From an uncultured Planctomycetaceae bacterium (GTDB lineage: Bacteria > Planctomycetota > Planctomycetia > Pirellulales > PALSA-1355), in assembly GCA_963793635.1 (NCBI GenBank), contig CAWCAX010000004.1:25951-89950 (forward strand): DNA of 64,000 nucleotides, given 5' to 3'. The translations under genes were made by a program, and so were the position numbers. This document shows, piece after piece, positions 149 to 60,823 of this stretch (its first letter is position 1; each line of letters starts with the position of its first letter). Under the pieces are notes generated by a model that searched no databases, was not told the DNA's origin, and worked only from the letters and a program-made list of their open reading frames with translations.

Positions 149-438
149 GTTTCTCGCAACCCGAGTTTAAAAAAGGACTTAGCCACAGCGCCTAAAGCGC
201 AGCTGGGGCGGCCGTGACCAGGGGCTATTGCAAGTATCCTGCAAACGGAAAAATGCGTCAACGGCGATGCATGGGCTCTGGGCCACCGTCCGCGGCGCCC
301 CTTCGGCTCTGCATGCCGGTTCGGATGTTCGGGCGTAACTATACTTGGCTACAGGTGTTGCGGGGCTAGGGAGCCTGCCCGGTGTGCCTTACAATCAATG
401 GTTCTATCATCCTCCGCTTGCAAGGAAAGACTATCCCC

Positions 439-1749
439 ATGCATCGCAAGTTCGCGGTACTGGCCCTCGTCACCGTCCTAGCGCAGTCCGGCAGGGCCGA
501 CGAGCCGGCCGCCTGGGCCCACGCGCACATCGACGAATTGGTTCAGCTATATCGCCATTTTCACGAGCATCCGGAACTGTCGTTCCAAGAGCGCGAGACC
601 GCGGCCCGCGTCGCCCAGGAGTGGAAGTCCGCCGGGTTCGACGTCGCCACCGGCATCGGCGGCACGGGCGTCGTCGCGGTGCTGAAAAATGGCCCCGGAC
701 CGACCCTCATGCTGCGGACCGATCTGGATGCCTTGCCGGTGACCGAAGCCACGAACCTGTCCTATGCCTCGACGACCAAAGTCAAGCAGGCCGACGGCCG
801 CGAGTCGGGCGTGATGCACGCCTGCGGGCACGACGTGCACATCACGAACCTGATCGGCGTCGGCCGCTACCTGGCTGAAAACAAGGATCGCTGGTCCGGT
901 ACGCTTGTGCTCATCGGACAGCCGGCGGAAGAAGTCGGCAACGGCGCCCAGAAGATGCTGGCCGACGGGCTGTTCGAGAAATTTCCCAAACCCGACTACG
1001 CGCTGGCACTGCATGTCGACAGCACCTTGCCGACGGGCAAGGTGGGCTATCGAGCCGGCTACGCGCAGGCCAACGTCGATAGTGTCGACATCACGCTCTA
1101 CGGTCGCGGCGGGCACGGCGCCGCTCCGCACACCACGATCGACCCGATCGTGATGGCGGCCGAACTGGTGCTGAGTCTGCAATCGCTGGTCAGCCGCGAG
1201 ACCAACCCGATCGAGCCCGCCGTGGTTACGGTCGGATCGATCCATGCCGGCAGCAAGCACAACATCATCGCCGACAACTGCAAGCTGCAACTCACCGTGC
1301 GCAGCTATTCCGACAAAGTCCGCGAGCACTTGCTCGAGGGCATCCGGCGAAAAGCCGCGGCGGTTGCGGCCGGCGCGGGCGCTCCGGAGCCGGAGGTGAC
1401 GATGCTGGATGACTTTACCCCCTCGGTTTACAACGATGACAAGCTCGTGGATCGCCTGGTGCCGGTCTGGAGGGAGCTGTTGGGCGCCGAGAACGTGGTC
1501 CAGAAAGACCCGACCATGGGGGGCGAGGATTTCAGCTTCTACCAGAAGGCGGGGGCCAAGGTGTTGATGTTTCGCCTGGGTTCGGTCGAACCCAAGCGTC
1601 TGGCCGGTTTGACTCGGGGCGGGCAAGAGCCCCCTTCGCTGCATTCGGGCATTTATTATCCCGATGCGGATCTGGCACTCGAAATCGGGATCGCGGCGAT
1701 GGCGACGGCGGCCATGGAACTGCTTCCGCCCCAGACCGGCGCGAAGTGA
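439..1749 (+). CDS. secreted M20D-family amidohydrolase (aminoacylase/hippurate-hydrolase-like)
   Basis: ORF 382..1749. The internal Met at 439 gives the signal peptide MHRKFAVLALVTVLAQSGRA. Motifs MHACGHDVH, GQPAEE and YGRGGHGAAPH are typical of M20D amidohydrolases. Confidence 0.85.
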   Translation: MHRKFAVLALVTVLAQSGRADEPAAWAHAHIDELVQLYRHFHEHPELSFQERETAARVAQEWKSAGFDVATGIGGTGVVAVLKNGPGPTLMLRTDLDALPVTEATNLSYASTTKVKQADGRESGVMHACGHDVHITNLIGVGRYLAENKDRWSGTLVLIGQPAEEVGNGAQKMLADGLFEKFPKPDYALALHVDSTLPTGKVGYRAGYAQANVDSVDITLYGRGGHGAAPHTTIDPIVMAAELVLSLQSLVSRETNPIEPAVVTVGSIHAGSKHNIIADNCKLQLTVRSYSDKVREHLLEGIRRKAAAVAAGAGAPEPEVTMLDDFTPSVYNDDKLVDRLVPVWRELLGAENVVQKDPTMGGEDFSFYQKAGAKVLMFRLGSVEPKRLAGLTRGGQEPPSLHSGIYYPDADLALEIGIAAMATAAMELLPPQTGAK

Positions 1750-1770
1750 CCGACTTCGAGAGACGGATCC

Positions 1771-2218
1771 GTGAACGAATCGATGCCGAAATATCGCCTG
1801 CGCAAGGCCGCTCTGGCCTGGCTGGTTGCTTACTTGCTGGCGATGGGGCTGGTCGTTTGGGGAGTGTTCCACGCGCGCGCTTGGCGCTGGCGAATCTCAG
1901 CACCATCGAAGCACGTGCCGATTGGGAAACCTGGCAACGCGAAGCCGCGCTGCAATCAAAAAGCGGGCCGGTGCGCCGGGCCCAATCAGAAAGTCCCGAG
2001 CCGCCCATGTTGGTTTTGCTGCGGGATCATTTTGGAGTCATGCTCGCGGCCGCCGCCGTCTTCAGTTCGTTGCTGTTTGCCACCGCCATGATCGCCGCTG
2101 CGCGGAGCCTATGGTCCGGGACGAACGCAGCCGCGAATCCTCGATCGGCAGCCATGGAACCGTTGAGCCGATCCGCAGCCACGATCGCCCCGGGGAAACG
2201 CCGCCGCGCCGCCGATAG
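1771..2218 (+). CDS. hypothetical membrane protein (frame-shifted, end uncertain)
   Basis: A TM segment AALAWLVAYLLAMGLVVWGVF (ORF 1771..2091) continues in the frame of ORF 1746..2348, which has a second TM (VMLAAAAVFSSLLFATAMIAA). I recognise no family. Confidence 0.3.
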
Positions 2219-2232
2219 CGCTGTGCTGCCGA

Positions 2233-5200
2233 TCAGGTCAGGCGTAGCTGGGACCACGACACGTCGATGCGGGCTTGCAGCCGCGAGGCCAATTCCAGAT
2301 ACCTGGGACGGCCGTCAACCAGCGACGCCGCGATGTCGCGAATCGTGAGCTGTTCGCGTTCGACGCAGATCGTCATTCGCTGATCGTCGGTCTTGACGAC
2401 TGTGGCCGGCTCCTGCAAATCGTCGGCAAAGAATCGGCCGAGTGCGGTCGTGTCGGCATAGCTGGGGGCGAAAACCAGCAACCGCTCGGCCGTGCCGCTG
2501 GTACTAAGCACCGGCTGGGCCGCCTCAGCATATGCCGCAGAGGATCGCGAGCGGCTGTCGACTTCCCGCTCAAATCGAGCAACAGCTGGGTCACGTCGAT
2601 CTGCGTCAAGGCCTTCAGGATTTCGGCCTCAGCGGTGACTCGGAGCTGGCGCGAAAGCCCCTGCAGGATCTGGCCGGCTGTCTCGCTGTCGTCGCTGGCA
2701 CGCCGTTGCCGTTGGAAAAACGAGGCCGGAAAATCATTCGCCAACGGGATCGCCAGTTCCGCCAGACGCTCGGCAAGAAATGATTGGACGGCCGAATGCA
2801 GGGCATACAAGGGCGTCTCCCGGGCCGAGCCGGCGCCGGTGCGGCCTTGCAGCTCCAGAATCGAGGGCGCACATTTTCGCTGCTCCACCAGCGACGCCGA
2901 CAACTTGCTTAATTCAGCACTGCAATTGGCCAGGACAATATCCGGGTTTCCGTGAAAGGGCTGGCTGGCGACCGGGCTCGACGCATCGCCCGAGTTGCGG
3001 ATATAGGCCGCCAGAGCGAACGCGATATCCCGGACGAAACGCCGATCGGCGCGCGGCCCCAGCGTCAGTTCGACCAACTGCATGACCTTGTCGGATACTT
3101 CGTCGCCGCCGGCAGTCGCGGCGCTGCGCTCAGTGGTCGGTCCCCGCCGATCGGAGTCCAGCCACTTATCGATCACCATCTGGCAGAGCCGATCGACGTA
3201 GCCTTCGACGACGTTCGCCGGCAGATTATTGGCGGTGAAGAGTCCAAAGGTGCGGATCGGCCATCTCGCCGGTCTGCGCGGGCTGCGCGGCCTGCATCGA
3301 GGCATGCAGGCAGTCGAGCAAGGTCCCTGCGCGGGTTGCCAGGCGATGGTACAGATAGTCGGATACCCGATCCAACTGGCTCTGAAAGTCGGAGTGACTC
3401 AGGCCGTCTCCCAAGTGCGCGAGCAACGTTTCGTCGAATGTTGGCAGAATGCTCGGGACCGCGAGCAGGCCCAGCGACTCTTCGCCCGGATAGCCGCAAC
3501 CCGGCCGGTTGAAGTGAGCCAGTTCTGTCAAGCAGGCCAGGGCGTTGGCCAGCGCCAGATCCTGCGACTCCGGCTCTTGTTCGGTCGAGTGCAGCAGCAG
3601 ACCGCGCAGTTCGTAATCGGCGATCCCCAACTCGGCGGTCAGCTTGCGGACGGCGTAGGCCAGATCCAAAATGATTCCGCTGCCGGTGCCTCCACCAATC
3701 GAGGTGACGAGCACGATCACCGGCCGATGGGTGAAGTTGGCTCCCACTGCCGCGGCGCTGGCGGCGAGTGCTTCCGGCGCCGCGAAGTCGTGCAGCGCGC
3801 GCGTCAGTCGCTGCATCACCCGAGCGCCATTGTCCACCAGGGCCAGCCGCCCCAATGGCCGACAGCGTGAGGTTCGCGGCTCGCGCGGAATATTATAGAG
3901 CCATCTACGGCTGAGCCACTTGAGCACCTCCGGCACCTCGGAGCGATACTCTTGGGTCGTACGCAACTTGATCAGCAGTTGATCGTCGGCCGGCCTGCCG
4001 CCGAGCTCCGGCGTCGCACCGCTGATCGACAGGGCCGCGGGATCGGTGTCGATGGACAGCATACTCCAGCCGGGTATTGCTCCGCCCGGTGCAAATTGCG
4101 TGGCCAGACGTTGCGACAGCCCGCGCAGAACATGCGTTGCCACGCCCCCCAAGCCAATAAACAGGGTCGGACGCGGTTCCCACTCCAGTGAGTCGGTCTC
4201 CACCACCGGCAAGCGAACTTCGACGCGCGGCTTTGCCGCGCGACTCAGCGGCTGGCGCAGCGAACTGTCGCCCCCCAGCACCAGCGTCGCATCTTCGCTG
4301 ACCGGCGGAAGGCTGCGCGGCACCAGCGGAAGGGGCACCGCCGCGCGTTGTGCGTAACCTCGGTCGGACTCGAGCGGTGGCGGCGCGGCGTCAGCGGCTT
4401 GGGGCGGACGAACTGGATCTTCCGCGCGGGCCGCCGGCGTCTCGGTCTCGCAGGGCGTCGCGGCCAGCAGGCTGTCGACAAAGGCCCGGCAGTTGGGAAA
4501 ACGGTCTTGGGGATGCTTGGAAAGGGCGCGGCGCACCACGGCCTGGTCGGCGGGACTTAGCTGTTCGAGCTTGGGCTTCGTGCCCAGCAAGTGCTGTGCG
4601 GCAAACTGTGCGGCGCTGCGGGCGTCGAACGGCGGCTGGCCGGTCAGTAGTTCCGCGTAGACGACAGCCAGGCTGAATTGATCGCTGAATTTGGTGGGCC
4701 GCCCCTCGAAAACTTCCGGCGCGGCATAGCGGGGTGTCATGCCCTCGAGCATCGAAGCATCGCTGTCGGTCAGGTTGCGCACCAGACCGAAGTCGCCAAC
4801 TTTGAGCCGTCCGCCGACCAGCAGCAAATTTTCCGCTTTGACGTCGAGATGTTGCAACGATTGCGAAGTGTTGAGATAGTCGAGGGCGTCGGCCGCGTCG
4901 TGTAGATAGCCCAGCAGTTCGTCGCGAGCAATACCCGCCGCCCCGGCCTGCTTGCAGTCGAGGTAGCGCTGCTTCAGCGACATGTCGGCCAGTTCGTTGA
5001 CGATGATCAGCCGGCCGTCGACGATCTCGATTCGCTCCAGCGACAGCAAGAAACGGATGCCGGAGCTGTTTGATGCGCTCGAGGGCCTTCAGTTCGCGCA
5101 ACGCGCGGACCTCGTTGTGATAGCCATACACGATCTTGACGGCTTTGGTCAATCCGCCCGGCACTTCGGCACTCCAGACTTCGCCGTACGCGCCGGAGCC

Positions 5201-5274
5201 GATGCGCTCGCTGCAGCACGTAGCCGAGAATGGGCTGTGCACCTTGTACGGCAACCGTGGACATCGGCGGCGAA
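2233..5274 (-). CDS. Ser/Thr protein kinase fused to a tubulin/FtsZ-like GTPase domain plus a long C-terminal extension (~1010 aa; at least 4 frame corrections near 5215, 5045, 3260 and 2510)
   Basis: Reading order of the pieces: MSTVAVQGAQPILGYVLQ (tail of frame 5007..6677); ERIGSGAYGEVW..AVKIV (4391..5320); HLDVKAENLLL, VGDFGL, RYAAPE, then LFIGLGGVATHVL, MLSIDTD and VTSIGGGTGSGIILDLAYAVRKL (3226..5049); C-terminal pieces in 2373..3305 and 2233..2511. The kinase subdomains and the tubulin T1 and T4 (GGGTGSG) loops are all present. Confidence 0.8.
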
Positions 5275-5338
5275 ACCCTTTCGGAAGATCGAAATTGCAG
5301 CCCGTTGCGGGCCTCGCCATGCGCGGCGCGGCGAGACT

Positions 5339-6677
5339 CTATTTGCGGGCTTCGACAGCCGTGAAGTAGCTGCGAACGGCCAGGTCGAAATACTCGTTTG
5401 TCATTTCCAACGGAACTTCGCGATAGGCGCAATAGTTGCGAAGCTGATTCAACAGGTCGCGCGGATGGCAGCGGCGCAGCGACCGGCCTGCGCCGCGATA
5501 GTGCGTTTTGAGCAAGTGGTCCACCGCCTCGCGCCGGTACTCGACGTTGATGCTGGCCGCATAGTGCATGACCAGCCGGTGGAATTCCTCTTCCTGCGGA
5601 TCTTCGACATGAATCTTGTAGGGAATGCGGCGCAGGAAGGCCTCGTCCGCCAATTCCGAAGGTTCCAGATTGGTCGAGAAAATAATCAGCTGCTCGAACG
5701 GCACCTTGATCCGCTTGCCGTTGGCCAAGGTGAGGAAATCCTGCCGGTTCTCCAAGCGGAATGATCCAGCGATTCAGCAGTTCGTGCGGCTCGATGCGCT
5801 GGCGACCGAAATCGTCGATCAGCAGGCAGCCGCAATTGCTCTTCAGTTGCAGCGGCGCCTCGCTCACGTGGAACTGCGCATCGTGGCGGATCTCGAGGCT
5901 CTCCATCGTCATTTCGCCGCCGACAATCACTGTCGGCCGCCGAATCCGCACCCAGCGCCGGTCGTGGGCAATCGGCGCTTTGTCGCCGCCGGCCTGCACC
6001 GACACGCTGTCGTGATAGGCCGGGTCGAACAGCCGGATGATCTGGCCGTCTTCGACGATGCAGTGCGGAATCCAGATGTTCTGTCCAAAGCACGAAGTCA
6101 TGCAGCGGGCCAGCGTCGACTTGCCGTTGCCGGGCGAGCCGTACAAAAACAGTCCGGCACCGCTGTTGATCGCCGGCCCCAGCGCGTCGAGCATGCCCGA
6201 GGGAACCGAGACATTGCGGAATGCCCGTTCCAGGTCGCGTCGCTTGGGCACCTCGCCGCGAATCGATTGAGCCTCGCACGAAAGCACGTATTCCGACAGC
6301 GGCACCGGCGCCGGTCCGACGTACGCGCAGGCTTGCTGTAGGGTAAGGGCGTAGGCGCGGCCCTGTTCGGTCAGGCGATAGATATAGTCGCTCAGTGGGG
6401 CCGAACCGATATGCACCAGCACCTGCCGCGTGCGGAGCGCGTCGAAAACCGATTGCAGCAGCCCGAGCGACAAACCGAGTTGCCGCGATACCTGGTGGCC
6501 ACTCGTCGCGCCGACGGCGGCCACCTGCTTGCAGATCAAGGCTTCCAGCAGCGACACCGACAATCCCGTGTCTTCGATCCGCTCCGGCAGTCGCGGCACG
6601 AACGAATCGTTGGCCAACAGTGCCGCGACAACTCCACCCTCTTCAGGCGACCAATTCGTAGCGCAGGCTGTGCTCAT
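5339..6677 (-). CDS. AAA+ ATPase with a helical or winged-helix-like N-terminal region (one frame correction near 5753)
   Basis: Walker A is LFLYGSPGNGKSTLA and Walker B is CLLIDDFGRQ (ORF 5007..6677). The protein continues as ENRQDFLTLANGKRIKVPFEQLIIFSTNL..DEAFLRRIPYKI in ORF 5339..5755. The break is an extra G in the minus-strand sequence CTTGGAGAACC. Confidence 0.8.
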
Positions 6678-7810
6678 GAGTGCGTTCTTTCAGGGTCGTC
6701 CTGCGCCGCTTCAGAGGGATCGAGAAAGTGGCAGATCTGCTCGGGATGGCCAAAGTGAAAACCCTGGCCGAATTGGAATCCCAGCTCGCGACACACGCGA
6801 GCTTCCGCCGGCGACTCGATTCCCTCGGCCACCGGTGCGATTCCCAGCGAACGCACCAGGTTGACCAGCGACTCGAGCAGCGTTTGCCGGCTCGCCGGGG
6901 CCTGGTCGATGCCGTGTACGAACGCCATGTCGAACTTGATATAGTCCGGCGGCACCTCGACCAATTCCAACAGGCGAGATTGACCCGCGCCGAAATCGTC
7001 GTAGGCGATTCCCACTTGCAATTCGAGGAGCCGAGCCCGCAACTCGGCGATCGCGGCCGGACTGGTGACCGCCGCCTCGTGAATTTCGAGCGTAAACGGC
7101 ACTTGCGGATACAGATCGCGCAGGCTGCTGATCGATTCGACGAGTTCCGGTGTGCCGAGTTCGGTGGGATGGGTGTTCAAGAATAAGTTGGGCATGCCCG
7201 GCAGGCGAGAGCCCTGGCCGGCGCCGGCCGATCGGAACAGTTCGCTGACCGCCTGTTCCAGGTCGAACATGGCCGCAATGTCGAAGATGGCCTTCGGCGT
7301 TTGCAGGCCGAAGAGCTGGCTGCGTCCGAGGATTTCGAACCCAAACAGGGCGCCGTCGGCCAGGGACACGATCGGTTGGAAGTGCGGCACCACCTCTCGA
7401 CCGACGAGCAGCCGATCGAGTTGCAACAGCAGCAGGGCCCGATCGCAATGGGTCGTGCCGATGGTCGCCTCGGTCAAGGCTTGATGCTCGAATTGCAGCC
7501 GGAAGACCTGCGAAGCGAACTGAATCATGTCGCCGTCGTTCAATCGGGACTCGCCGACCACCCGATTGCCGTTAACATAGGTCCCGTTCGTGCTGTTGTT
7601 GTCGCGCAGCCACAGCGCTCCGGAATGTTCGTAAATCTCGGCGTGCAATTTGGAGACTTGCGGAATCGGCAGGCAAAGCGAAATGCCCGGTTTGCGGCCA
7701 ACCTGGAACGGCAGCGGCGTCACCGGCAAGCGCTGCAGAGGACCGGCGTCGCCGACCTTTCCGACCAGTACCCAGCTTGCCAGCGCCGGAGTTCTTTCCT
7801 TAGTCAACAT
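6674..7810 (-). CDS. FHA domain + EAL domain protein (putative phospho-Thr-gated c-di-GMP phosphodiesterase)
   Basis: Start taken at MLTKERT (7810). FHA motifs: FQVGRKPG..LHAEI..LWLRDNNSTNGTYVNG. EAL motifs: FEILGRS, LNTHP, LEIHE, IAYDDFGAG, IKFD, VAEGIES, GQGFHFG. The stop overlaps the downstream ATPase start (ATGA at 6674-6677). Confidence 0.85.
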   Translation of the reverse strand: MLTKERTPALASWVLVGKVGDAGPLQRLPVTPLPFQVGRKPGISLCLPIPQVSKLHAEIYEHSGALWLRDNNSTNGTYVNGNRVVGESRLNDGDMIQFASQVFRLQFEHQALTEATIGTTHCDRALLLLQLDRLLVGREVVPHFQPIVSLADGALFGFEILGRSQLFGLQTPKAIFDIAAMFDLEQAVSELFRSAGAGQGSRLPGMPNLFLNTHPTELGTPELVESISSLRDLYPQVPFTLEIHEAAVTSPAAIAELRARLLELQVGIAYDDFGAGQSRLLELVEVPPDYIKFDMAFVHGIDQAPASRQTLLESLVNLVRSLGIAPVAEGIESPAEARVCRELGFQFGQGFHFGHPEQICHFLDPSEAAQDDPERTHS

Positions 7811-8328
7811 ATTTCGAGGGCCTGAGTCTTCGGGAACTTGACCGATGCCGCCACTGACCGCGATGCGAATCCCGCTTGACAAGAATAGATTGCAAATTAC
7901 ACAAAGTTCGCCGGTTTGAGGTCGGAAACCGCTTATGCCGATTTTGACGCCGGCAGCAATTGGGCCGCGCCGCAAACGGCGCCGCTTGCAACGGTTTTTC
8001 GCCGGGTTTTCGCCGGGGGTTTCCCATCCTGGCCCGCCTGGGCTACAATGGGGCTGGAATTGGGCCGGGCGATGCGCTCCGCCGGCAATCCGTCGCTACG
8101 TTCTGTGGCGTGCCGCGAGCGGCTCGGCGTGTTCTCAAGCTCATCTCGGTTGTCGATCTGACAGAACTAACAACGTAATCCTAGTGTTCGCTGGACTGCG
8201 ACGCCCGGCCGCTCGCATGTGGTCTCTGCTTGCCGGGGAGGATGTAGGTTTTTTTGAATAGTTCAATCTCGGCCTGGACGCTAACCTGATCGCGTGGTCG
8301 GGGGGGTCTATTTCCAGTAGAGGGTTCC

Positions 8329-8826
8329 ATGGTGAAACTTCTCAGCCCGACGAATGGTCCAAACGCAATGCCGTACGACAAACGAGCCGCACAGAAACCC
8401 GTGGCCGTCCCCGACATCTTGATCAGGGACGTCGTCAAGCTCTGCAAGCTGTTGGCGGATGAGACCCGCTTGCGGATCCTGCACTATCTGACCCAGTCGC
8501 ACGAACTGCACGTGCGGGCACTGTGTGAACTGCTGGGCGAAAGCCAGCCGGCGGTGAGCCATCACCTGGCTTTGATGCGCGTGGCCGGCCTGATCGACCG
8601 CCGTCGCGAGGGCAAACACAACTACTACTATCTCCAGACCGATCGCTTCTCCGGGCTGCTGGACATGTTCTTTGCCACCATGCCCGAGGGAAACCGCCGG
8701 GTGCGATTCGAGGACTACGTGCTCAGCCACGCGCCGGCCTACGGGGCGCTGCCCGCTTCGGTCGCGTCATCGTCGGTCCCCTCTTCGTTCACCAGTTCGG
8801 CCACCAACTGGCCGACTTGCTCGTAG
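8329..8826 (+). CDS. ArsR/SmtB-family transcriptional regulator
   Basis: Contains LCKLLADETRLRILHYL..HVRALCELLGESQPAVSHHLALMRVAGLIDRRREGKHNYYYL, a wHTH with the ArsR signature. The last ~40 aa overlap a convergent gene and may be read-through. Confidence 0.75.
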   Translation: MVKLLSPTNGPNAMPYDKRAAQKPVAVPDILIRDVVKLCKLLADETRLRILHYLTQSHELHVRALCELLGESQPAVSHHLALMRVAGLIDRRREGKHNYYYLQTDRFSGLLDMFFATMPEGNRRVRFEDYVLSHAPAYGALPASVASSSVPSSFTSSATNWPTCS

Positions 8827-9398
8827 GTGAAAGCGTCGGCCTCGCGCTGAGCGTTTTCGTTGTCGAAGCGCTTTCGCAGCCGCCCGGTCTGGTCGTAGAC
8901 CAATACGGCCGGGACCGACACGAAGCCGAACTTGCGGTACAGCACGTCGGATTCCTCGGTCGAAAGCACATTGTCGAATGTGGCCTGCTTGCTTTCCAGA
9001 AACGCCTGCACGGCCGGCGCCTTGTCGTGCGGCGTGCCGATTCCCTCGAAGTCGAAGCTCAGCGAGATGCAGGCCAGTGGAGGGCCGAATTTCCTCTGCA
9101 GTGCGACCAGGTTGGGAAATTCTTTGATGCACGGCGCGCACGACGTGCTCCATGCATCCAGCACCACCACCTGGCCCCGATGGCTGGCAATCAACTGCCG
9201 GATGCCCTCGAAATCGAGCAGCTTGAGTTCGACCTTCCCCGCGCCTGGGGCGTCATTCGGGCCGCCGCCCGCGTCGATCCGGACGGCCTTCGGACTCGCC
9301 GCGCCGCCTTGGTCGCTGGACGTCTGCTGGCAGCCGCCCAGCAGCAGCAGCGCGGTCGAAACCAGGGTGGGCCCAATGCGGATTCGGCTTGTTCTCAT
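8739..9398 (-). CDS. TlpA-like thiol:disulfide oxidoreductase lipoprotein (thioredoxin fold)
   Basis: Internal start MRTSRIRIGPTLVSTALLLLGGC has a lipobox. The CxxC motif lies in VVLDAWSTSCAPCIKEFP. The more upstream part of ORF 8739..9671 is Arg/Ser-rich and unlikely to be coding. Confidence 0.8.
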   Translation of the reverse strand: MRTSRIRIGPTLVSTALLLLGGCQQTSSDQGGAASPKAVRIDAGGGPNDAPGAGKVELKLLDFEGIRQLIASHRGQVVVLDAWSTSCAPCIKEFPNLVALQRKFGPPLACISLSFDFEGIGTPHDKAPAVQAFLESKQATFDNVLSTEESDVLYRKFGFVSVPAVLVYDQTGRLRKRFDNENAQREADAFTYEQVGQLVAELVNEEGTDDDATEAGSAP

Positions 9399-9604
9399 CG
9401 AAGCGGCCGGCGGCGGATTGCGGTGGGTCCGACTCCTACACCATGCCAGATGTTGCCCCGTCTCGTCAACCGACCCGGCGGTAAGTTCCCGTATTCCGTA
9501 TTCGCTGCCGACCTGCCCGTATTGACGCCAGTCAAAGCGGTTGCTATCGTTCCCGCCCCCCGTACTGCATGCGCTGCGGCGCATGCTCTTGCCAGGAAGG
9601 CCCG

Positions 9605-10883
9605 ATGACGACCGACTTCTGGACCGCTGCCTATCTTGCGCTGGCCGCCCTAGCGGTGCTCTCGTCCGCATTGCTGACGCTTCAGGCTTACGAGTTTCGC
9701 CGGTTCTCGCGCAGCCGCGCGGCCGGCCGCAGCGGTCAGGCCCCCGCCGGGCGCGTGGTGCTCATTTGCCCCTGTCGGGGGCGCGAGATGAACCTGACGA
9801 AAAATCTGCGGGCCCTGTTCGCGCAAGATCATGGAAACTACCGACTGTTGTTCGTCGTCGACCGGTTGCTCGATCCGGCCTGCCGGCCGATCCTGCGATT
9901 GATGCGAGCGCATCCGCGGATCGAGGCCGCCCTGATCGTGGCGGGCACGGCAACCGACAGCGGACAGAAAGTGCATAACCTGCTGGCGGCAACGGCCGAT
10001 TTAGCCGCCGGACGTGCAAATCCTGGCTTTCGTCGATTCCGATGCGCGACCGGCGGCCGATTGGCTGCGACAGCTCGTGCAGCGCCTGGACCAGCCGGGC
10101 GTCGTCGCGGCCACGTCTTATCGCTGGCTGGTGCCGCGCCGCTCGACGCCCGCCAATTTTCTGGTGCATGCGCTCGACGCCAGCGTGGCGCCGCTGATCG
10201 GACCGGGGCGGCACCATCTGGTTTGGGGCGGATCGTGGGCCGTGCGCCGCGATGCCTTCGAGCGAGTCAACCTGCGCGGAGCGTGGCGCGGAACACTGAG
10301 CGACGACCTGGTTGCGGCTCGCGCGTTGCGCTCGCTCGGCAGAGTGCAGTTCGAGCCCGGCGCCATGGTTTCGACGGAAATCGATTTCGACTTCGGCGGC
10401 ATGTTCGAGTTCGTGCGCCGGCAATTTACGATCGGCCGTTTCTACGCGCCGGAGTTTTGGGCACTGGCCACCCTGTTCGGCTGTGCGCAGCAGGGCGTGC
10501 TGTGGATCGGCGCAGCGCTGGTGCCGGTTGCCTGGATGTTCGGCGGCTGGCCGCGTTTGGCAGTGTTGGCCGCCGGATTGCTCTACGGTTTGCAAGTCCT
10601 GCGCGGTTGGCTGCGCGAGGATGCCGCGCGCCATTTTCAGCCCGAAGGTTACCGGCGAACCGCTGCGGCCCGCAGGTTCGCCGTGTGGTTGGGCCCCCTG
10701 GTGGGGTTACTACATTGCTGGGGACTGCTCCGCGCGCTATCGGTTCAATGCATCGAGTGGCGTGGCATTGGCTATGCAATTTACCCGGGCGGCCAGACGC
10801 GGATTGTCCGCCGGCCGGCCACGCCCGAGCAAGTGCCGGCGGGCCACAAGCGGCGCAGATACCGAGCCAAAACCCGTCCGTAG
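9605..10883 (+). CDS. membrane glycosyltransferase, GT2/GT21 (ceramide-glucosyltransferase-like); one frame correction near 10010
   Basis: The N-terminal piece is MTTDFWTAAYLALAALAVL..VVLICPCRG..YRLLFVVD..GQKVHNLL (ORF 9569..). It continues as ILAFVDSDARP..GGSWAVRRDAFERV plus C-terminal TM helices in ORF 10014..10883. Confidence 0.75.
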
Positions 10884-14338: not shown

Positions 14339-15505
14339 ATGCGTGCCAACGCGGATCGCAACTACGGCAATCTGCTGCGCGACGTATTGCGCACGGCTGG
14401 CCAGCGGCTGTGCGGCGGCGTCAACCTGGGATCGCGGCGGCGCAGTACGGGCGGGTCGGAAACGGTCGCGGGCGCTTCGGTCGCCGCGCGTTCATCGCGC
14501 CCGGCCCTGCCGCACAACCCGGCCGTGTTGGTCGAATTGATGCTCTCCCAGGGGCGGTATGCGCTGCTGTTGCGGCCGCAGCTAATCGGCAATCTGAGCC
14601 CGGAACAGCGCGACCGGGCGATCGCCGCTCTGGCGCACCACACGGCGCTCATCAAAACCGGCCCGGTCGTCGTGCTGGGAGTTGCCGGCACCCTGGCCGA
14701 CCTGGAGGGTGCAGCCGCGGCGCCAGCCCCCTCGGCCGCCGAGGCCGTGATTGTCGACAGTTTCCTTCTGGATCGAACGCTCGTCACCAACCGCGAGTTC
14801 CAACAGTTCGTCGCCGCCGGCGGTTACCAGGAGCCGTCAATCTGGGATCCCGAGGTCTGGGCTGTCGTGCCGGAATTCGCCGACCGCAGCGGCGCGCCCG
14901 GACCGCGGTTCTGGTCGCACGGCCGATTCGATCCGCGGCTCGAGCGGCATCCGGTCGTCGGCGTGAGCTGGTACGAAGCGTCGGCCTACGCCCGCTGGTT
15001 GGGAAAGCGTTTGCCGGCCGATGCCGAATGGGTCCGGGCCGCAGCCGCCCCGATGTTGCTTCCAGGCGGCGAATTGCGGCAGCGCAAGTTTCCCTGGGGA
15101 GACAAAGCCGAGCGCGGCCGGGCCAACCTCTGGGGAGCAAACCCCGGCGGAACCGTGGCGGTGGATGAGTTTCCGCAAGGGGACAGCGCGGGCGGGATCA
15201 GCCAGTTGATCGGCAACGTTTGGGAATGGACCGCCGGCCATCTGAACCTGGCGAGTTGGACGCGGGTCTGGCCAGACGGCACGCTGCGATCCACCGCCAT
15301 GAAGTCGCTGCGGGGCGGAGCCTTCGACACCTATTTCGACTCGCAGGCCACCTGCCAGTTCCCGAGCGGCGACCATCCACTGGCCCGCAAACACAACATC
15401 GGCTTCCGCTGTGCGCTGGGGACTTGCGATTTACAAATGCCGGGCGCCGCGCCGGCCGACGAGCCGCAGGGGGAAGAGACGGTTTTGGCGGAGACCGCGT
15501 TATGA
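14339..15505 (+). CDS. FGE/SUMF1-domain (formylglycine-generating-enzyme-like) protein
   Basis: Internal ATG at 14339 (MRANADRNYG). C-terminal motifs: LDRTLVTNREFQQFV, RHPVVGVSWYEASAYARWLGKRLP, GNVWEWT, LRGGAF, IGFRCA. Confidence 0.8.
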   Translation: MRANADRNYGNLLRDVLRTAGQRLCGGVNLGSRRRSTGGSETVAGASVAARSSRPALPHNPAVLVELMLSQGRYALLLRPQLIGNLSPEQRDRAIAALAHHTALIKTGPVVVLGVAGTLADLEGAAAAPAPSAAEAVIVDSFLLDRTLVTNREFQQFVAAGGYQEPSIWDPEVWAVVPEFADRSGAPGPRFWSHGRFDPRLERHPVVGVSWYEASAYARWLGKRLPADAEWVRAAAAPMLLPGGELRQRKFPWGDKAERGRANLWGANPGGTVAVDEFPQGDSAGGISQLIGNVWEWTAGHLNLASWTRVWPDGTLRSTAMKSLRGGAFDTYFDSQATCQFPSGDHPLARKHNIGFRCALGTCDLQMPGAAPADEPQGEETVLAETAL

Positions 15506-16410
15506 GTAAGAACATCGCCATCGAACTCGAATCGTACCGGCTGGCAAAATACGCGACGCAGGTTCCCTGCTACATCTGCGGCGAAGGCAATCTGTTCGAC
15601 AGCGAGCTCTGTCGGTTCTGCTTCGCGCCGATGGCTTTGGCGCAACAGGTCGCCACGCATAAGACTGCTCCGCGGCTATTGGCCACGTTGGGTGCCAGCG
15701 GGGTCGGCAAGACCGTCTATTTGGGCATGCTGCTCGACATGCTGGTCCGGCAGCCGGACCGGTTGCAAATCGTAGCCCGGGGCGCGTTTTCGATCACGCT
15801 GCAGCAGTCGACCGCCACGGCCATGGCGCGCTGCGAGTTTCCCAGCAAGACCCCTAGCGAGCCGGACCGTTGGAATTGGGTGCATTGCCAGGTTCAGCGG
15901 CCGAAGCAAAAACGTCCGGTGGAGTTGATTATGCCTGACCTGGCCGGCGAAGCCTTGTTCGAGGAGCTTGATCACCCGCGCACGTACCGCGTCGTCCAAC
16001 CGCTGTTAAGCCAGGCGGCCGGCGCGCTGGTGCTGGTGGATGCGTTTCGTCTTCAAGACGGCGCGCCGGATCAAGATTACTTCACCCTCAAGCTGCTCAG
16101 CTATCTGAGCGAACTGGACGACAATCCGAAGACGGGCTGGCGCAATCGGCCGTTGGCCATCATTTTCAGCAAGGCCGACGAGGCCGACGAATGCTTCGAC
16201 GACCCGGACCTGTTCGCAAAGCGCCATGCCCCGCGCCTCTGGGAGCACTGCCGGCGATTGTTCCGCGGATATCGTTTCTTTGCCGCCGGCCTGGCCGGCG
16301 TCTGCGCCCAGCGGAGCGTGCGGGGCGAAGCTAAACGCGTGCCGCTGCGGGTCGAGCCCCGCGGCATTATCGAACCGTTCGAGTGGCTATTGTCTCAGAT
16401 CAAGGCCTGA
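15502..16410 (+). CDS. small P-loop GTPase with an N-terminal zinc ribbon
   Basis: The start MSKNIAIE overlaps the upstream stop (ATGA at 15502-15505). Zinc ribbon: CYICGEGNLFDSELCRFC. G1 is GASGVGKT, G3 is MPDLAGE and G4 is IFSKAD. Confidence 0.75.
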   Translation: MSKNIAIELESYRLAKYATQVPCYICGEGNLFDSELCRFCFAPMALAQQVATHKTAPRLLATLGASGVGKTVYLGMLLDMLVRQPDRLQIVARGAFSITLQQSTATAMARCEFPSKTPSEPDRWNWVHCQVQRPKQKRPVELIMPDLAGEALFEELDHPRTYRVVQPLLSQAAGALVLVDAFRLQDGAPDQDYFTLKLLSYLSELDDNPKTGWRNRPLAIIFSKADEADECFDDPDLFAKRHAPRLWEHCRRLFRGYRFFAAGLAGVCAQRSVRGEAKRVPLRVEPRGIIEPFEWLLSQIKA

Positions 16411-16473
16411 TTCCATCGCTTCCGGCAAGCGACCACCGTATCCTGCAAGCCACAACCTGGGAGCCCATTTCGC

Positions 16474-17835
16474 ATGCTCGTCGAACAGGCCATTTTTGGA
16501 TCCGCCCGGACCGGAGACAGGGCGGGATATCACCTCGTTTCGCGCTCGCCCGGACTGGCGCAGTCGGATGCGCGAGAGCTCGCCGAGTGGGGGCCGTCGC
16601 ACGATTCTCTGGTCGACAGCGGACCGCGGGGGCAAAGTTATAATTTCTTCCCCTTGCGCAGCGGCGCGTTCTGCATCTCGAAGACGTCGGCGGCCGGGGC
16701 CGAATTCAGCGGCCGGGGCGGAGCCGAAGTGCGAACGCAGTGTCTTGTCGTTTCGGCTGAGGTTTTTTTCCGCTTCTCGAACAATCCCTTCGCCGTGCTC
16801 CGAGCGGCCGAAGCGACCGGCCGGTTGCGGGCCGGAGACTCGACCGAGACGGGGCCCGGCGGCCGGCCGCCCGAAGCGCTGCGTCTGGTCGGGCGTTCGG
16901 CGGTGGCCGACCATCTGCTGCTCGCCGAATTGGCTCGGGCACCGGGCGCCAAGGCCATGGCCGTGCTGGTCGAGCAAGCACTGGCCGGCCGAAGCCTGGT
17001 CGTGGTCAGCCGCAGCGGAGAAAAATTGATGGCCGGGTTGATCAGTTGCCTGCCGCTCCCCCTGCGCAGCGCAATTTCGTTCTCGACCGGCCTGAAGCTT
17101 TCGCCCTGGCGTCCCTTCCGCATCTCGGCAGCGCCGGCCGATAGCGCCGCTCTGCGGCGAGAAGCCCGCGCGCTGGGCGCCGACGTGCTGGTGCTCGAGT
17201 GGGCCGGCGAGATCCAGTTTTCCAAGGATTCCTGGCCGGCGCGAGTCGAGATTGCCCTGCGAGAATCCAAATTCAGTCAGCTGGCGAATGAAATTCTGCG
17301 ACTCGCCGCTTCCGCGCCGGATGTTGTTCCGGCCGAGGTTCCGACGATCGGCGAAGCGACTCCACCCGACCCGCCCGAGCAGGCGTGGGCCCTATCCCCC
17401 GCCGCGGCAGACGATGGCCAGGCCTCTCGGCAAGCGGCTGGCAGCGCCGGCCATCATCGCGGCCGCTCGGATCAAGCGCATGCGCGATTCGAGCGCAACG
17501 AATCCGCCGGCACCGGCAAGTGCTATGCCGCGGAGCGAGCGCAAACCGGCTTGGGTGAGAATCGCGAGGCGCTGGAGCTTATCGAGCGCTTGGACGACCT
17601 GGTTTTCGACGCGATTGCCGGCAAGCCGACGGCGCTGGCCCGATTGGTGGAGTTTTGGCCGGAAGTGCTCACGCGCCTGGACCCGGCCGTGCTGACGGAA
17701 GCCCGCGAGCAGTATCTGCGCCACGCGCTAGTGATTTGGACCCAATCCGATTCCCAGGGGGTGCAGGACCCGCAGCGAGTCGTCGCTGCGCTCGACGTGC
17801 TGTGCTTGTTGTTTCCGGAAGCGGACTTCGCCTAG
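16474..17835 (+). CDS. hypothetical 453-aa protein; possible GTPase-associated (GAP1-like) partner
   Basis: The ORF is intact. The N-terminus [28 protein letters not shown] resembles (from memory) the N-terminal motif of GTPase-associated protein 1 families. The C-terminal part looks helical. No HMM check was possible. Confidence 0.5.
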   Translation: MLVEQAIFGSARTGDRAGYHLVSRSPGLAQSDARELAEWGPSHDSLVDSGPRGQSYNFFPLRSGAFCISKTSAAGAEFSGRGGAEVRTQCLVVSAEVFFRFSNNPFAVLRAAEATGRLRAGDSTETGPGGRPPEALRLVGRSAVADHLLLAELARAPGAKAMAVLVEQALAGRSLVVVSRSGEKLMAGLISCLPLPLRSAISFSTGLKLSPWRPFRISAAPADSAALRREARALGADVLVLEWAGEIQFSKDSWPARVEIALRESKFSQLANEILRLAASAPDVVPAEVPTIGEATPPDPPEQAWALSPAAADDGQASRQAAGSAGHHRGRSDQAHARFERNESAGTGKCYAAERAQTGLGENREALELIERLDDLVFDAIAGKPTALARLVEFWPEVLTRLDPAVLTEAREQYLRHALVIWTQSDSQGVQDPQRVVAALDVLCLLFPEADFA

Positions 17836-23476: not shown

Positions 23477-24832
23477 ATGAGCGAGTTGATCATCAGCGTA
23501 TCGGGATTGCGAGGCGTTGTCGGAGACACGCTGCTGCCCCAGACGGCGCATCCGTTACGGCTGTGCCTTTGCCGCCGAGCTGCCGCCGCGGAAAAATCGT
23601 GATCGGCCGCGACGGCCGGGCGAGCGGTCCGATGCTTTCGGCGGCCCTGGTGGCCGGTCTGACCGCGGCGGGGCGCGAAGTGCTCGATGCCGACGTGGCG
23701 GCCACGCCCACGCTGGGCGTGCTGGTCCGCGCCCACGCCGCGGCCGGCGGCATTCAGATTTCGGCCAGCCACAACCCGCCCCAATACAACGGACTCAAAT
23801 TGTTCTCGGCCGAAGGGCGCGTCATTTCCGCCGCCGCCGGCCGGCGCGTGCTCGATCGCTATCAAAACGACCCGGCTGCGCCGGCGCCGCGGGCCGAGCT
23901 GGCGCCGGCAACACGCATCGACGATACCACGTCGGATCACTTCGAGCGGATCTCGGCGCTGGTCGACGTGCCGGCGATCCGCAGCCGGCGTTTTCGGGTG
24001 CTGCTCGATGCCAATCACGGCGCCGGCAGCGTGCTGGGCGTGCGCTTGCTTGAGGAACTCGGCTGCCGGCATCGTATTGCTGGGAGGATTGCCCGACGGA
24101 CGGTTCGAGCACACGCCCGAGCCGACCGCCGAAAATCTGGCCGATGTGCAGTATCAGGTCGCTCAGGCCGGCGCTGGACATCGGATTCTGCCAGGATCCG
24201 GATGCCGACCGGCTGGCCGTCATCGACGAGCATGGCCGCTATCTGGGCGAAGAGGAGACGCTGGCGCTGTGCGTCGACCATCGTGCTCCGCCGGCAGCCG
24301 GGCCCGATCGTGACCAATTGTTCGACCAGCCGGATGGCCGAAGACTTGGCCGGCAAGTACGGCGTGCCGTTCTTTCGCTCGGCGGTGGGCGAGGCCAACG
24401 TGGTCGACGCGATGCTGGCCCACCGCGCGGTCTTGGGGGGCGAAGGCAACGGCGGCGTGATCGATCCGCGCGGTGGTGCTGGTCCGCGACAGCTTCGTGG
24501 GCATGGCGATGATCCTCGACGCCATGGCCGCGCGCGAGCTGCCGATCAGCAGCCTGGCCGACGAACTGCCGCGCTACGAGATCGTGAAAACCAAGATCGG
24601 GCTCGCGCGCGAGCAGATTCCCGCTGCCCTGGCTGCGCTGGAAAAGCACTTTTCCGCCGCCCAGGCCGACCGCCTGGATGGGTTGCGGCTCGACTGGCCC
24701 GGCAAGTGGCTGCTGGTGCGCGCCAGCAACACCGAGCCGATCGTGCGGGCGATTGCCGAGGCGCCGACGGAGAAGGAAGCAAGGTCGCTGTGTGAAGAGG
24801 CCGCGGCGGTGATGGGAAAACGTAACGGATGA
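23477..24832 (+). CDS. phosphoglucosamine/phosphomannomutase-like phosphohexomutase; at least 5 frame corrections
   Basis: The gene starts at 23477 with MSELIISVSGLRGVVGD. GIQISASHNPPQYNGLK is in ORF 23563... FCQDPDADRL is in 24144... GGEGNGGVI is back in the 23563.. frame. The C-terminal piece is LVRASNTEPIVRAIAEA (24473..24832). Confidence 0.8.
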
Positions 24833-34055: not shown

Positions 34056-34878
34056 ATGAAGCTGGGTCTGATCAATTCCGCCTGGGTGCAAGCTCGGCAA
34101 CCGACCGTCTTTGGCCTGCGCGAGACCAAACGCATCGGGTTCGACTCGGTCGATATTTTCGTCGATCCACTCGAGGTGGACATTCGCGAGCGCAGGCTCA
34201 TCAAGGACGAGTGCGACCGCTTGGATCTGCCGATCGTGTCGCTTGCCTGTGTGGCGGTCGGACTGATCGACTTCAATGCCAGCGTGCGGCGGTTTCATGT
34301 GGACCGCGTGCGAGCCTATCTCGACCTGGCCTATGAATATCAGGCCCAGAACGTCCTGTTGGTGATCGGCGAATATATCTGGAATCGAGAAGTCATTCCC
34401 CCCGCCGAGCAATGGAGCGCAGCCGTCGAGACGGTCCGCGAGCTGGGGCACCGGGCCGGCGAGCTGGGGTTGGAAATCGCCATCGAACTCGAACCGTTCG
34501 CGTTGTCGCTGGTCAACTCCGTCGACACGATGCTGCGATTGCTCGATGACGTGAACTTAAGCAGCGTGAAGGCCAATATCGATATCTCGCACCTGGTGCT
34601 CTCGAAGGTCAATCCCGAGGAGCTGGCCAGGCTCAAGGGCCGGGCCGCCCACGTCCACATTTCCGATTGCGACGGTCACGTGCACGGCGATTTGCCGCCG
34701 GGGCGCGGCGTGGTTCCGTTCGCGCCCTATCTGCACGAGATCAAAAAACTGGAGATCGACGGCGCGATTTCGAATCGAACTCGAGTATTCGCCCGAGCCG
34801 GCAAAAATTGTCGAGTGGGTCGAGGAAGCTTATCGCGAGACCGACAAATTGCTCCGCCAGGCCGGACTGCGGGGCTAA
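34056..34878 (+). CDS. sugar phosphate isomerase/epimerase (xylose-isomerase-like TIM barrel); one frame correction near 34775
   Basis: The pieces are MKLGLINSAW..GFDSVDIF, LGLEIAIELEP and HVHISDCDG. After the shift the tail reads EYSPEPAKIVEWVEEAYRETDKLLRQAGLRG and stops at 34876-34878. Confidence 0.8.
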
Positions 34879-34909
34879 GCAAGTCATCGCCTTGGACCAG
34901 ATATAAGAC

Positions 34910-35530
34910 TCACGCGGAGCCGCGGAGTCGCGGAGAGAGGAACGGGAAGATGAATTTGGCCAGGGCATTGGACGAGATCATGGGCGAGATCGTAGATGCT
35001 GCGGTCAAGTTACACGTGCGCCTTGGACCGGGATTGCTGGACTCTGTGTACGAGGCGGCGTTAGCACGTGAATTGGCACGCAGGGGACTTCACGTCAGTC
35101 GACAAATGCCCATTGCGTTTGAATTTGACGGCATGCACTTTGAGGAGGGTTTTCGTATTGATCTGCTGGTCGAGGCGTCTGTGGTCGTCGAATTGAAGTC
35201 GGTAGAACGATTGGCTCCGGTTCACTCGAAGCAGGTGCTCACGTATCTTCGCTTGCTCAACCTGCCCGTGGGCTTGCAGATCAACTTCGGCGAGTCCACG
35301 CTCAAGGAAGGCCTGCACCGGGTTGTCAATAACTACGTTCCAGCTCCCGCAGGGTCGTCGCACCTGCGGGTCAATCGGAGGGACGTCCCATGAGGCAGGG
35401 CCACGGGAGGATCCTGCAGAGCCGCGGAGTCGCGGAGCGAAAAAGAAAATACGGTTGCTCGAGCACGATCTCGACGGCATTGCCAAAAACCTCGTTTCGT
35501 TCCCCTCCGCGTCTCCGCGGCTCCGCGTGA
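34910..35530. mobile_element. 621-bp cassette: a GxxExxY gene bracketed by 26-bp imperfect terminal inverted repeats
   Basis: Left repeat: TCACGCGGAGCCGCGGAGTCGCGGAG (34910-34935). Right repeat: 35505-35530, whose reverse complement TCACGCGGAGCCGCGGAGACGCGGAG matches at 25 of 26 positions. A third direct 19-nt copy GAGCCGCGGAGTCGCGGAG lies at 35419-35437. Confidence 0.45.
34950..35393 (+). CDS. GxxExxY protein (PD-(D/E)XK nuclease superfamily)
   Basis: MNLARALDEIMGEIVDAAVKLHVRLGPGLLDSVYEAALAREL (the GxxExxY-type motif, with D in place of E) ..FRIDLLVEASVVVELKSV (D...ExK) ..QVLTYLRLLNLPVGLQINFG. Confidence 0.85.
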   Translation: MNLARALDEIMGEIVDAAVKLHVRLGPGLLDSVYEAALARELARRGLHVSRQMPIAFEFDGMHFEEGFRIDLLVEASVVVELKSVERLAPVHSKQVLTYLRLLNLPVGLQINFGESTLKEGLHRVVNNYVPAPAGSSHLRVNRRDVP

Positions 35531-43059: not shown

Positions 43060-43083
43060 CGTCTCAATGTCTGAAGGACCTCT

Positions 43084-49988: not shown

Positions 49989-50009
49989 CCGGCATTCGTT
50001 GAATGCCGG
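49989..50009. terminator. perfect 9-bp hairpin between convergent genes (possible bidirectional terminator)
   Basis: CCGGCATTC-GTT-GAATGCCGG. There is no adjacent T-run on either strand. Confidence 0.35.
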
Positions 50010-50087
50010 CTATTGTCGGCAAGGAAAACTCCCGCGCTCGGCACTTTTTCGTTCCGAGTTCCGCGTTCCCCGTTCCGAGTTTTCCCC

Positions 50088-52752
<2,665 letters not shown>

Positions 52753-52755
52753 CGG

Positions 52756-54675
<1,920 letters not shown>

Positions 54676-55116: not shown

Positions 55117-55179
55117 TAATCGCACCGAGGGGACGGCTGAATTCTCAGTCGTCCGGCCCCCCTCTTGAGATGAACCGGC

Positions 55180-57519: not shown

Positions 57520-58861
<1,342 letters not shown>

Positions 58862-60812: not shown

Positions 60813-60823
60813 TCCCACGACGC

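Follow-up and report, generated by a model that had tools for sequence, protein, structure and literature searches.

A conserved planctomycete gene module centred on a kinase::FtsZl1 fusion, with a possible link from threonine phosphorylation to cyclic di-GMP turnover

What might a bacterial tubulin-like protein do when it is fused to a Ser/Thr kinase and encoded beside a protein that joins an FHA domain to an EAL phosphodiesterase domain? The question is raised by a 64,000-nucleotide (nt) stretch of DNA from an uncultured Planctomycetaceae bacterium (GenBank assembly GCA_963793635.1, contig CAWCAX010000004.1, forward-strand positions 25,951 to 89,950), called the window below. In this window, which has a G+C content of about 63%, three co-directional genes occupy positions 7810-2233 of the minus strand in the order FHA–EAL > ATPase > kinase::FtsZl1. 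The tubulin-like part of the last gene belongs to Tubulin_2, the FtsZl1 family of Makarova and Koonin (2010), whose fusion to a kinase in planctomycetes was reported in that work (PMC2875224) and mentioned again in papers of 2023 (PMC9871819) and 2024 (PMC11032199). The function of FtsZl1 has been unassigned since 2010, and it is still to be explained how Planctomycetia, which lack FtsZ, manage to divide and to organise their cells. We conclude that a module centred on kinase::FtsZl1 is conserved and vertically inherited in planctomycetes. Tentatively, and with a confidence somewhat short of even, we propose that it is a phosphothreonine-wired cyclic di-GMP (c-di-GMP) module on a tubulin-like scaffold.

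The kinase::FtsZl1 fusion and the reading frames of the locus

The Tubulin_2 profile (PF13809, cut-off 27 bits) was matched with 99.6 bits by the unrepaired open reading frame (ORF) and, after the frame repairs described below, with 98.5 bits (6.3e-28, residues 367-595). Conserved in the family are a T1 loop (G-x-G-G), an IDTD strand, an invariant insert, WLSRRWLYNIPR, a T3-like G-x-R-P-x-G-R-L-A element and a T4 loop (GG-x-G-S-G); across 63 sequences, G23/G24 of T1 and G175/G176/G178/G180 of T4 are conserved either fully or to at least 90%. With an alignment of 63 sequences, an AlphaFold2 (AF2) model was obtained for residues 361-1011 of an ortholog, P0003, which is 66% identical to the window protein (predicted local distance difference test score, pLDDT, 91; predicted template-modelling score, pTM, 0.90). 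When this model was compared with the PDB by Foldseek, the top 50 matches all belonged to the tubulin/FtsZ superfamily, 16 of them at E<=1e-3. The best was CetZ2 (6.5e-6), and CetZ1, γ-tubulin, the FtsZ proteins of Staphylococcus aureus, Escherichia coli and Methanocaldococcus jannaschii, TubZ and Odin-tubulin were also matched (target-normalised TM-scores 0.35-0.54). A preliminary description of the locus, made from its sequence, had named the tubulin fold of the GGGTGSG region beforehand as one of the points on which it could be refuted; the matches to both Pfam and Foldseek were significant. As judged from the Pfam match and the ortholog model, this region is a true, highly divergent tubulin/FtsZ-fold domain. 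Membership of the canonical FtsZ/tubulin family was not found, as PF00091 was matched at E=0.2 (12.3 bits versus a cut-off of 33) and FtsZ_C and Tubulin_C were not matched.

Positions 297-645 of the TUB2 hidden Markov model (HMM) map onto the C-terminal region that follows the GTPase domain (Table 1). The secondary structure of the ortholog model comprises an α/β domain (17-352), helices (372-557) and an α/β subdomain (568-635), and so matches the FtsZl1 architecture, in which an FtsZ-like domain is followed by an extended helical region and a C-terminal domain. Foldseek alignments to γ-tubulin and E. coli FtsZ (target-normalised TM-score 0.54) ran over 616-626 columns, a length that hints at the presence of the FtsZ C-terminal domain, perhaps in the form of the small α/β subdomain and set apart by a helical insertion of about 190 residues.

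On the N-terminal side, the repaired protein matches Pkinase over residues 15-255 (1.2e-29; 103.9 bits versus a cut-off of 31.7). The catalytic residues, found in the window within GSGAYGEV, AVK, HLDVKAEN, DFG and APE, are conserved at 90% or more in the family (H-L-D, K, N, DFG and APE among them), which carries the non-RD HLD motif throughout. In the linker, the conserved T-x-[VIA]-[LFIW] motif is represented in the window by T326, within EDATLVL (4276-4296), and is a candidate docking site for the FHA domain. Composed of a non-RD kinase, a Pro-rich linker, a tubulin/FtsZ fold, a helical region and a small α/β domain, kinase::FtsZl1 is putatively cytoplasmic.

The three genes are predicted to form an operon or gene cluster, given their common strand, the ATGA overlap, the 74-nt spacer and a neighbourhood that is kept in distant genomes. 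A terminator-like site was looked for in the spacer between the ATPase and kinase genes and none was found; a promoter and terminator scan gave no more sites than shuffled sequence. The preliminary description had listed the co-directional minus-strand genes and the ATGA overlap at 6674-6677, which are present, as are all the sequence motifs that it quoted, and its domain calls (non-RD Hanks-type kinase, Tubulin_2/FtsZ-like, FHA, EAL and P-loop AAA-like ATPase) hold. It placed the kinase ATG at 5274, leaving a gap of 64 nt; the actual ATG is at 5264.

Two of the genes required frame repair. A 1-nt indel within 5740-5762, absent from the preliminary description, breaks the ATPase frame in two; the repaired protein of 445 amino acids (aa) has the length of the intact L001 ortholog and is 88% identical to another intact ortholog, P0121. 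In the kinase::FtsZl1 gene, 1-nt indels lie within 5198-5219, 5035-5059, 3249-3270 and 2511-2534, and the repaired protein is colinear with the intact 1011-aa P0003 over residues 11-1010. An uninterrupted ORF, 5049..3226, spans the kinase C-lobe, the linker and Tubulin_2. Since both domains score within it (Pkinase 5e-22, Tubulin_2 2.8e-28), their fusion in one gene, also claimed in the preliminary description, is independent of frame repair.

Pfam matches revealed that other genes of the window are likewise split or truncated across frames, namely dnaK, clpB, tpiA, the DAHP synthase gene, gmk, pheA, coaBC, yicC and PGM; dnaK, for example, covers only positions 1-365 of the 599 in the HSP70 profile. 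(A GC3 frame-switch scan was too noisy for counting indels, and the Pfam evidence on split housekeeping genes was used instead.) Similar fragmentation is seen in several related loci on long contigs of metagenome-assembled genomes, such as L015 and L041, and every fragment at the locus under study retains 55-90% identity to intact orthologs. Because housekeeping genes across the window are broken alike, we conclude that the five indels are almost certainly consensus errors of the assembly, not pseudogene decay. Single-base indels are frequent throughout the window, and ORF-based readings there therefore need frame repair.

Table 1. Positions of the genes, domains and motifs of the locus and of the frame-broken housekeeping genes in the window
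Feature	Coordinates	Strand	Remarks
FHA–EAL gene	6674..7810	−	ATG 7810, stop 6674; 378 aa, intact; Pfam FHA + EAL
FHA domain	7517..7702	−	residues ~37-98; Pfam 8e-17, 61.9 bits versus cut-off 20.7
EAL domain	6743..7420	−	residues ~131-356; Pfam 1.2e-37, 130 bits versus cut-off 31.3
ATGA stop/start overlap, FHA–EAL TGA with ATPase ATG	6674..6677	−	read from the sequence; translational coupling
wHTH–AAA-like ATPase gene (wHTH, winged helix-turn-helix)	5339..6677	−	445 aa once one extra base within 5740-5762 is removed
ATPase motifs			Walker A GSPGNGKST; Walker B LLIDDFG; sensor-1 FSTN; Arg-rich DEAFLRRIPYKI, like the second region of homology (SRH)
Spacer, ATPase stop to kinase ATG	5265..5338	−	74 nt
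Ser/Thr kinase::FtsZl1 (Tubulin_2) gene	2233..5264	−	1009 aa after four single-base repairs
Hanks-type kinase domain	4459..5222	−	non-RD (HLD); Pfam and motif positions
Kinase motif GSGAYGEVW	5174-5200
Kinase motif AVKIV	5129-5143
Kinase motif HLDVKAENLLL	4819-4851
Kinase motif DFG	4783-4800
Kinase motif APE	4714-4731
Pro/Ala-rich linker	4198..4458	−	holds the conserved T-x-[VIA]-[LFIW] motif
Tubulin/FtsZ-like GTPase domain	3265..4197	−	Pfam Tubulin_2 2.8e-28
T1 GLGG	within 4126-4164
IDTD	4042-4062
Family-specific WLSRRWLYNIPR	3883-3918
T3-like RPLGRLA	3832-3861
T4 GGGTGSG	within 3676-3702
C-terminal ~340 residues	2233..3264	−	long helical bundle + small α/β subdomain, from the AF2 secondary structure of the ortholog
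Frame-broken housekeeping regions	23563-24795, 50234-62041		PGM, clpB, dnaK, pheA/ACT, DAHP synthase, tpiA, yicC, gmk, coaBC
clpB	50234-52652		frame-broken
dnaK	53233-54675		frame-broken
pheA/ACT	55180-56455		frame-broken
DAHP synthase	56449-57881		frame-broken
tpiA	57542-58084		frame-broken

Partner proteins and conservation of the neighbourhood

The residues of the FHA domain that contact phosphothreonine (GR, SxxH, NG) are invariant in 49/49 and 11/11 orthologs; in the set of 49 the invariant positions are G39, R40, S54, H57, N76, N81 and G82. In the EAL domain of the window all 12 of the 12 catalytic positions are kept, with the signature ERNEEDDKDEEQ. The domain belongs to a catalytic clade, in which the full signature is present in 36 of the 37 copies, that of the window included, and it is predicted to be a catalytically competent c-di-GMP phosphodiesterase. 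A second, degenerate clade keeps between one and seven of the 12 EAL positions in all of its 21 distinct copies. Catalytic FHA–EAL proteins accompany the ATPase, and the degenerate paralogue accompanies a REC–degenerate-GGDEF–CBS (REC–dGGDEF–CBS) protein, whose GGDEF motif is lost in 22/22 cases (for example, AYDRF). Neither a second FHA–EAL gene nor a REC–dGGDEF gene was found within the 64-kb window.

The ATPase belongs to a family with at least 8000 matches, about 60% identical across orders and labelled 'AAA family ATPase'. GxPGNGKST, LLIDDFGRQ, FSTN and DEAFLRRIPYK are invariant in 56 orthologs. Its Pfam and NCBIfam AAA matches all fall below the cut-offs (13-25 bits), and the PDB profile match has an E of ~2e-4. 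The SRH region gave sub-threshold matches to IetA/IteA, CdvC/Vps4 and MSP1 (5e-8 to 1e-4), and the Walker A region to spastin and the DnaC-like PRK08116. A MarR-like wHTH was confidently predicted by AF2 at the N-terminus; the best Foldseek match is an uncharacterised hexameric ring from Pyrococcus furiosus (8P49), besides matches to MarR-like wHTH domains. Orthologs at or above about 52% identity lie mostly beside kinase::Tub2 (the kinase::Tubulin_2 gene) and FHA–EAL.

Conservation of the neighbourhood was surveyed in species-representative genomes, which yielded 80 loci annotated with purpose-built HMMs, including 54 species-level loci with enough flanking sequence. At least 380 homologs of the fusion were found, all with Pkinase and Tubulin_2 and named 'tubulin-like domain-containing protein' at NCBI. 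In 77/80 loci the kinase is fused to Tub2, and in 74/80 the two share a single ORF. Within 5 kb of the fusion gene there is an FHA–EAL gene in 42 of the 54 species-level loci, an ATPase gene in 31 and a REC–GGDEF–CBS gene in 16. In 29/80 loci the ATPase gene immediately precedes kinase::Tub2 on one strand, with gaps of 51-351 nt, and three of four reciprocal look-ups that started from FHA–EAL led to genes adjoining the ATPase and kinase::Tub2.

At least four gene orders occur. The window type, FHA–EAL > ATPase > kinase::Tub2, is found in four loci plus L001 and L002; in 11 loci a reversed FHA–EAL gene (−) precedes ATPase > kinase::Tub2; in eight the order is ATPase > kinase::Tub2 > FHA–EAL; and in 16 a reversed REC–GGDEF–CBS gene (−) precedes FHA–EAL > kinase::Tub2, seven of these having the ATPase within 5 kb upstream (six at about 3 kb). 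The genes of the module thus recur next to each other, in varied order, in Pirellulales, Planctomycetales and some Gemmatales, and the co-localisation check suggested in the preliminary description found the three genes together in most related genomes. Inheritance of FtsZl1 in Planctomycetes is vertical (PMC2875224). The window gene order and the 12/12 EAL signature were also seen in Maioricimonas sp. JC845 (L049, NZ_JBFEFK010000006.1), which is recorded as a strain and not as a metagenome-assembled genome.

The named hosts are Pirellulales, Planctomycetales or Gemmatales, with one exception, L083 (CAYRFQ010000026.1), which is labelled 'uncultured Alcaligenaceae'; its kinase::Tubulin_2 groups with those of Gemmataceae in a rough neighbour-joining tree, and the label probably results from mis-binning. 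In the Gemmataceae/Gemmatales loci L070-L091, no FHA–EAL, ATPase or REC–GGDEF gene was found within 10 kb, and several linkers carry DTMEDxFLE. When the T-x-x-Φ linker motif was checked for confinement to loci with a neighbouring FHA–EAL gene, it was this other threonine motif that was found in Gemmataceae.

The truly kinase-less loci, L009-L011 and L099, encode a Tub2 protein that is 778-807 aa long in L009-L011. Each has an ATPase of the same family directly upstream and no FHA–EAL nearby, and the system may be built around the ATPase–FtsZl1 pair. Two further apparently kinase-less Tubulin_2 representatives were rejected, one because a contig end cuts it off and the other because gene calling had split it. 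In a metagenomic contig (L092, Ga0163144_10028421, 400-9973), a catalytic FHA–EAL gene and the ATPase gene are followed by a reversed REC–dGGDEF–CBS gene (−) and then by a degenerate FHA–EAL gene and kinase::Tub2. This five-gene cluster may represent the complete ancestral system, and the arrangement in the window equals it without the REC–dGGDEF–CBS and degenerate FHA–EAL genes.

A possible mechanism and its alternatives

In the mechanism that we propose, nucleotide-dependent self-association of FtsZl1 would juxtapose the non-RD kinase domains, which would then trans-phosphorylate threonines, with the T-x-x-Φ site of the linker (T326 in the window) as a candidate. The invariant FHA pocket would dock on the linker phosphothreonine, and docking would concentrate or activate the EAL phosphodiesterase, so that c-di-GMP would fall locally; where a lineage has the degenerate paralogue, the second messenger would be sensed, not hydrolysed. 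A hexameric ATPase would reset the assembly by remodelling it. The output would likely be a c-di-GMP-controlled switch of the life cycle or the cell pole in budding bacteria that lack FtsZ. That the FHA domain reads phosphothreonine made by the kinase had been suggested in the preliminary description; this fits the pocket, invariant in 60/60 orthologs, and the lack of FHA–EAL at kinase-less loci, neither of which amounts to proof.

Several observations weigh against this proposal. The T6–H7/T7 elements are not identifiable in FtsZl1 sequences (PMC2875224), and hhalign aligned the family with E. coli FtsZ over T1–S2 only, at a probability of 8%; for these two reasons self-assembly and GTPase activation are put conditionally here, and the preliminary description overstated its case in calling the protein filament-forming. 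The linker motif, in variant form, also occurs at loci without a neighbouring FHA–EAL gene, and 12 of the 54 species-level loci (Gemmatales and Anatilimnocola) have no partner at all within 10 kb of kinase::Tub2. The split into catalytic and degenerate FHA–EAL proteins is a single ancient duplication, and the correlation of paralogue with neighbouring gene therefore does not represent many independent events. For the ATPase, the model of the core is poor (pLDDT 66.6), and more distant homologs have no link to Tub2 and no conserved neighbours that we could find; its earlier casting as an AAA+ loader or remodeller, drawn from adjacency and weak similarity, went too far. Five frameshifts fall within the 4.4 kb of the ATPase and kinase::FtsZl1 genes.

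A wider version of the proposal, in which a phosphothreonine-gated c-di-GMP hub, assembled on a scaffold of the tubulin superfamily, governs the budding cycle or cell polarity and descends from a five-gene ancestral system, is doubtful as a whole. If true, it would give the FtsZl1 family its first functional role and Hanks-type kinase signalling its first direct wiring into c-di-GMP turnover. If the coupling itself is real, it would be a new bacterial link between Ser/Thr phosphorylation and second-messenger turnover. The conserved partners would read phosphothreonine, hydrolyse or sense c-di-GMP and act as an AAA-type remodeller; this chemistry is well understood, which makes the orphan fusion experimentally tractable.

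The FtsZl1 part might instead form a polymer that performs mechanical or scaffolding work when FtsZ-less Planctomycetia bud or divide, with the kinase, FHA–EAL and ATPase as no more than its regulators and disassembly factor. Such a cytoskeletal or division machine agrees with the tubulin/FtsZ fold found by Foldseek and with alignments long enough to hint at an FtsZ C-terminal domain split by the helical insertion. It also agrees with the persistence of the ATPase–Tub2 pair without the kinase and with the resemblance of the ATPase SRH to Vps4, CdvC, MSP1 and spastin-type AAA proteins. The named hosts, L083 apart, come from Pirellulales, Planctomycetales and Gemmatales, orders described in three papers as dividing without FtsZ (PMC5147048, PMC6952346, PMC12283558). 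We nevertheless consider this explanation unlikely: no T7-like element was detectable by hhalign or in the published analysis, and Makarova and Koonin held a division role for FtsZl1 to be improbable, since elsewhere it occurs together with FtsZ (PMC2875224). Tubulin-like proteins, FHA, EAL and c-di-GMP go unmentioned in a paper on essential genes of Planctopirus limnophila, with its supplements, and in a 2025 review of Planctomycetota. A link to cell division, hinted at in the preliminary description, is speculation. A division machine is compatible with the phosphothreonine–c-di-GMP proposal, and the two are not exclusive.

Planctomycetes have elaborate membrane invaginations, which speaks for a membrane-remodelling or vesicle complex, as does membership of the FtsZl1 family, for whose operons Makarova and Koonin (2010) proposed this role in general; we give this explanation a rather low probability. 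The usual partners of FtsZl1 elsewhere are vWA proteins, kinases, a small GTPase, OmpA-like proteins and transmembrane proteins (PMC2875224); vWA, OmpA-like and transmembrane proteins and a dedicated small GTPase, which had prompted the membrane proposal, are absent from the window and the surveyed loci, where FHA–EAL, AAA and REC–dGGDEF–CBS genes are found instead. No membrane-associated Pfam family was found in the three proteins, in which transmembrane segments were not predicted directly. An anti-phage or conflict system built around the kinase and an NTPase is very improbable. The kinase domain matches the generic defence-kinase models mad6 and PD-T4-6 and the ATPase SRH matches IetA/IteA, but PADLOC matches are limited to the generic kinase domain or to about 60 residues of the AAA protein, with none for FHA–EAL. 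The cross-order identity of the ATPase, put here at no less than 60%, and the vertical inheritance in Planctomycetes (PMC2875224) likewise speak against defence, as do the flanking genes of the window, which are housekeeping genes syntenic with L001. Decayed pseudogenes, chance adjacency or both would account for the five frameshifts and the context-free distant ATPase homologs; such an absence of function is hardly credible when essential genes across the window are frame-broken alike, the fragments keep their identity to intact orthologs, and FHA–EAL stays adjacent in 42/54 species-level loci despite rearrangement.

Other features of the window and comparison with known systems

Elsewhere in the window, an ORF at 16474-17835 (+) carries a GAP1-N2 domain (PF20013, 2e-13), known from predicted conflict systems centred on GTPases; just upstream of it, the overlapping ORFs 15220-16410 and 16226-17029 may share one frameshifted gene or system with it. 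Another ORF, 34056-35393 (+), combines an AP_endonuc_2 xylose-isomerase-like TIM barrel (4.6e-31) with a PDDEXK_3 nuclease (1.9e-36) and could be an unusual fusion or a frameshift artefact joining two genes. AT skew is strongly negative at 42001-44000 (-0.32) and at 50001-54000 (-0.20 to -0.26); genes for Wzy_C O-antigen-ligase-like and acyltransferase membrane proteins lie at the former region (41581-44129). Scanning the 64-kb window with Rfam and for tRNA genes gave no matches.

The closest known relative is FtsZl1 itself, with which the window protein shares the family HMM, the FtsZ-like N-terminal domain, the helical region, the C-terminal domain and the planctomycete kinase fusion. The partners of the module (FHA–EAL, a wHTH–AAA-like ATPase and REC–dGGDEF–CBS) differ, and they are not mentioned in the FtsZl1 papers. 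A literature search found no paper with 'FHA-EAL' or its variants and no experimental study of the module. Thus, of the earlier claim that no such system had been described, the part concerning the fusion did not stand, as it has been known since 2010, and the neighbourhood of FHA–EAL, AAA and REC–dGGDEF genes, with its pattern of catalytic and degenerate paralogues, appears undescribed. With FtsZ, tubulin, CetZ and TubZ the window family shares a nucleotide-binding fold with a glycine-rich T1, a T3-like G-x-R-P-x-G-R and a T4 GGxTGSG; unlike them, it has an insert of about 60 residues with the invariant WLSRRWLYNIPR, a helical region of about 190 residues and no recognisable T7.

Spastin and katanin disassemble tubulin polymers, and Vps4/CdvC act on ESCRT-III. 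Similarly, the window encodes an SRH-like ATPase directly upstream of a tubulin-superfamily gene, and the weak matches of this ATPase include MSP1. In contrast to spastin, Vps4 and CdvC, it scores below threshold, has DD in Walker B, holds an insert of about 100 aa that separates the two Walker motifs and carries an N-terminal MarR-like wHTH.

In mycobacteria, PknB with FhaA/GarA is a phosphosignalling pair of Hanks-type kinase and FHA protein. The window likewise encodes a Ser/Thr kinase beside an FHA protein with intact phosphothreonine-contact residues, but here the FHA domain is fused to a phosphodiesterase domain and the kinase to a tubulin-like domain. A comparable coupling of phosphothreonine to c-di-GMP was not found in the literature. 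Polar control of the cell cycle and c-di-GMP modules with degenerate GGDEF/EAL receptors are exemplified by Caulobacter PleD/PdeA, together with FimX and LapD. The planctomycete module resembles them in that a REC–GGDEF protein is paired with an EAL protein, the degenerate domains are probably sensors, and the hosts are dimorphic and budding. It differs in that the window-type cluster has no GGDEF partner and its EAL domain is predicted to be catalytic, and in that its inputs would be phosphothreonine and a tubulin-like protein, beyond two-component phosphorylation.

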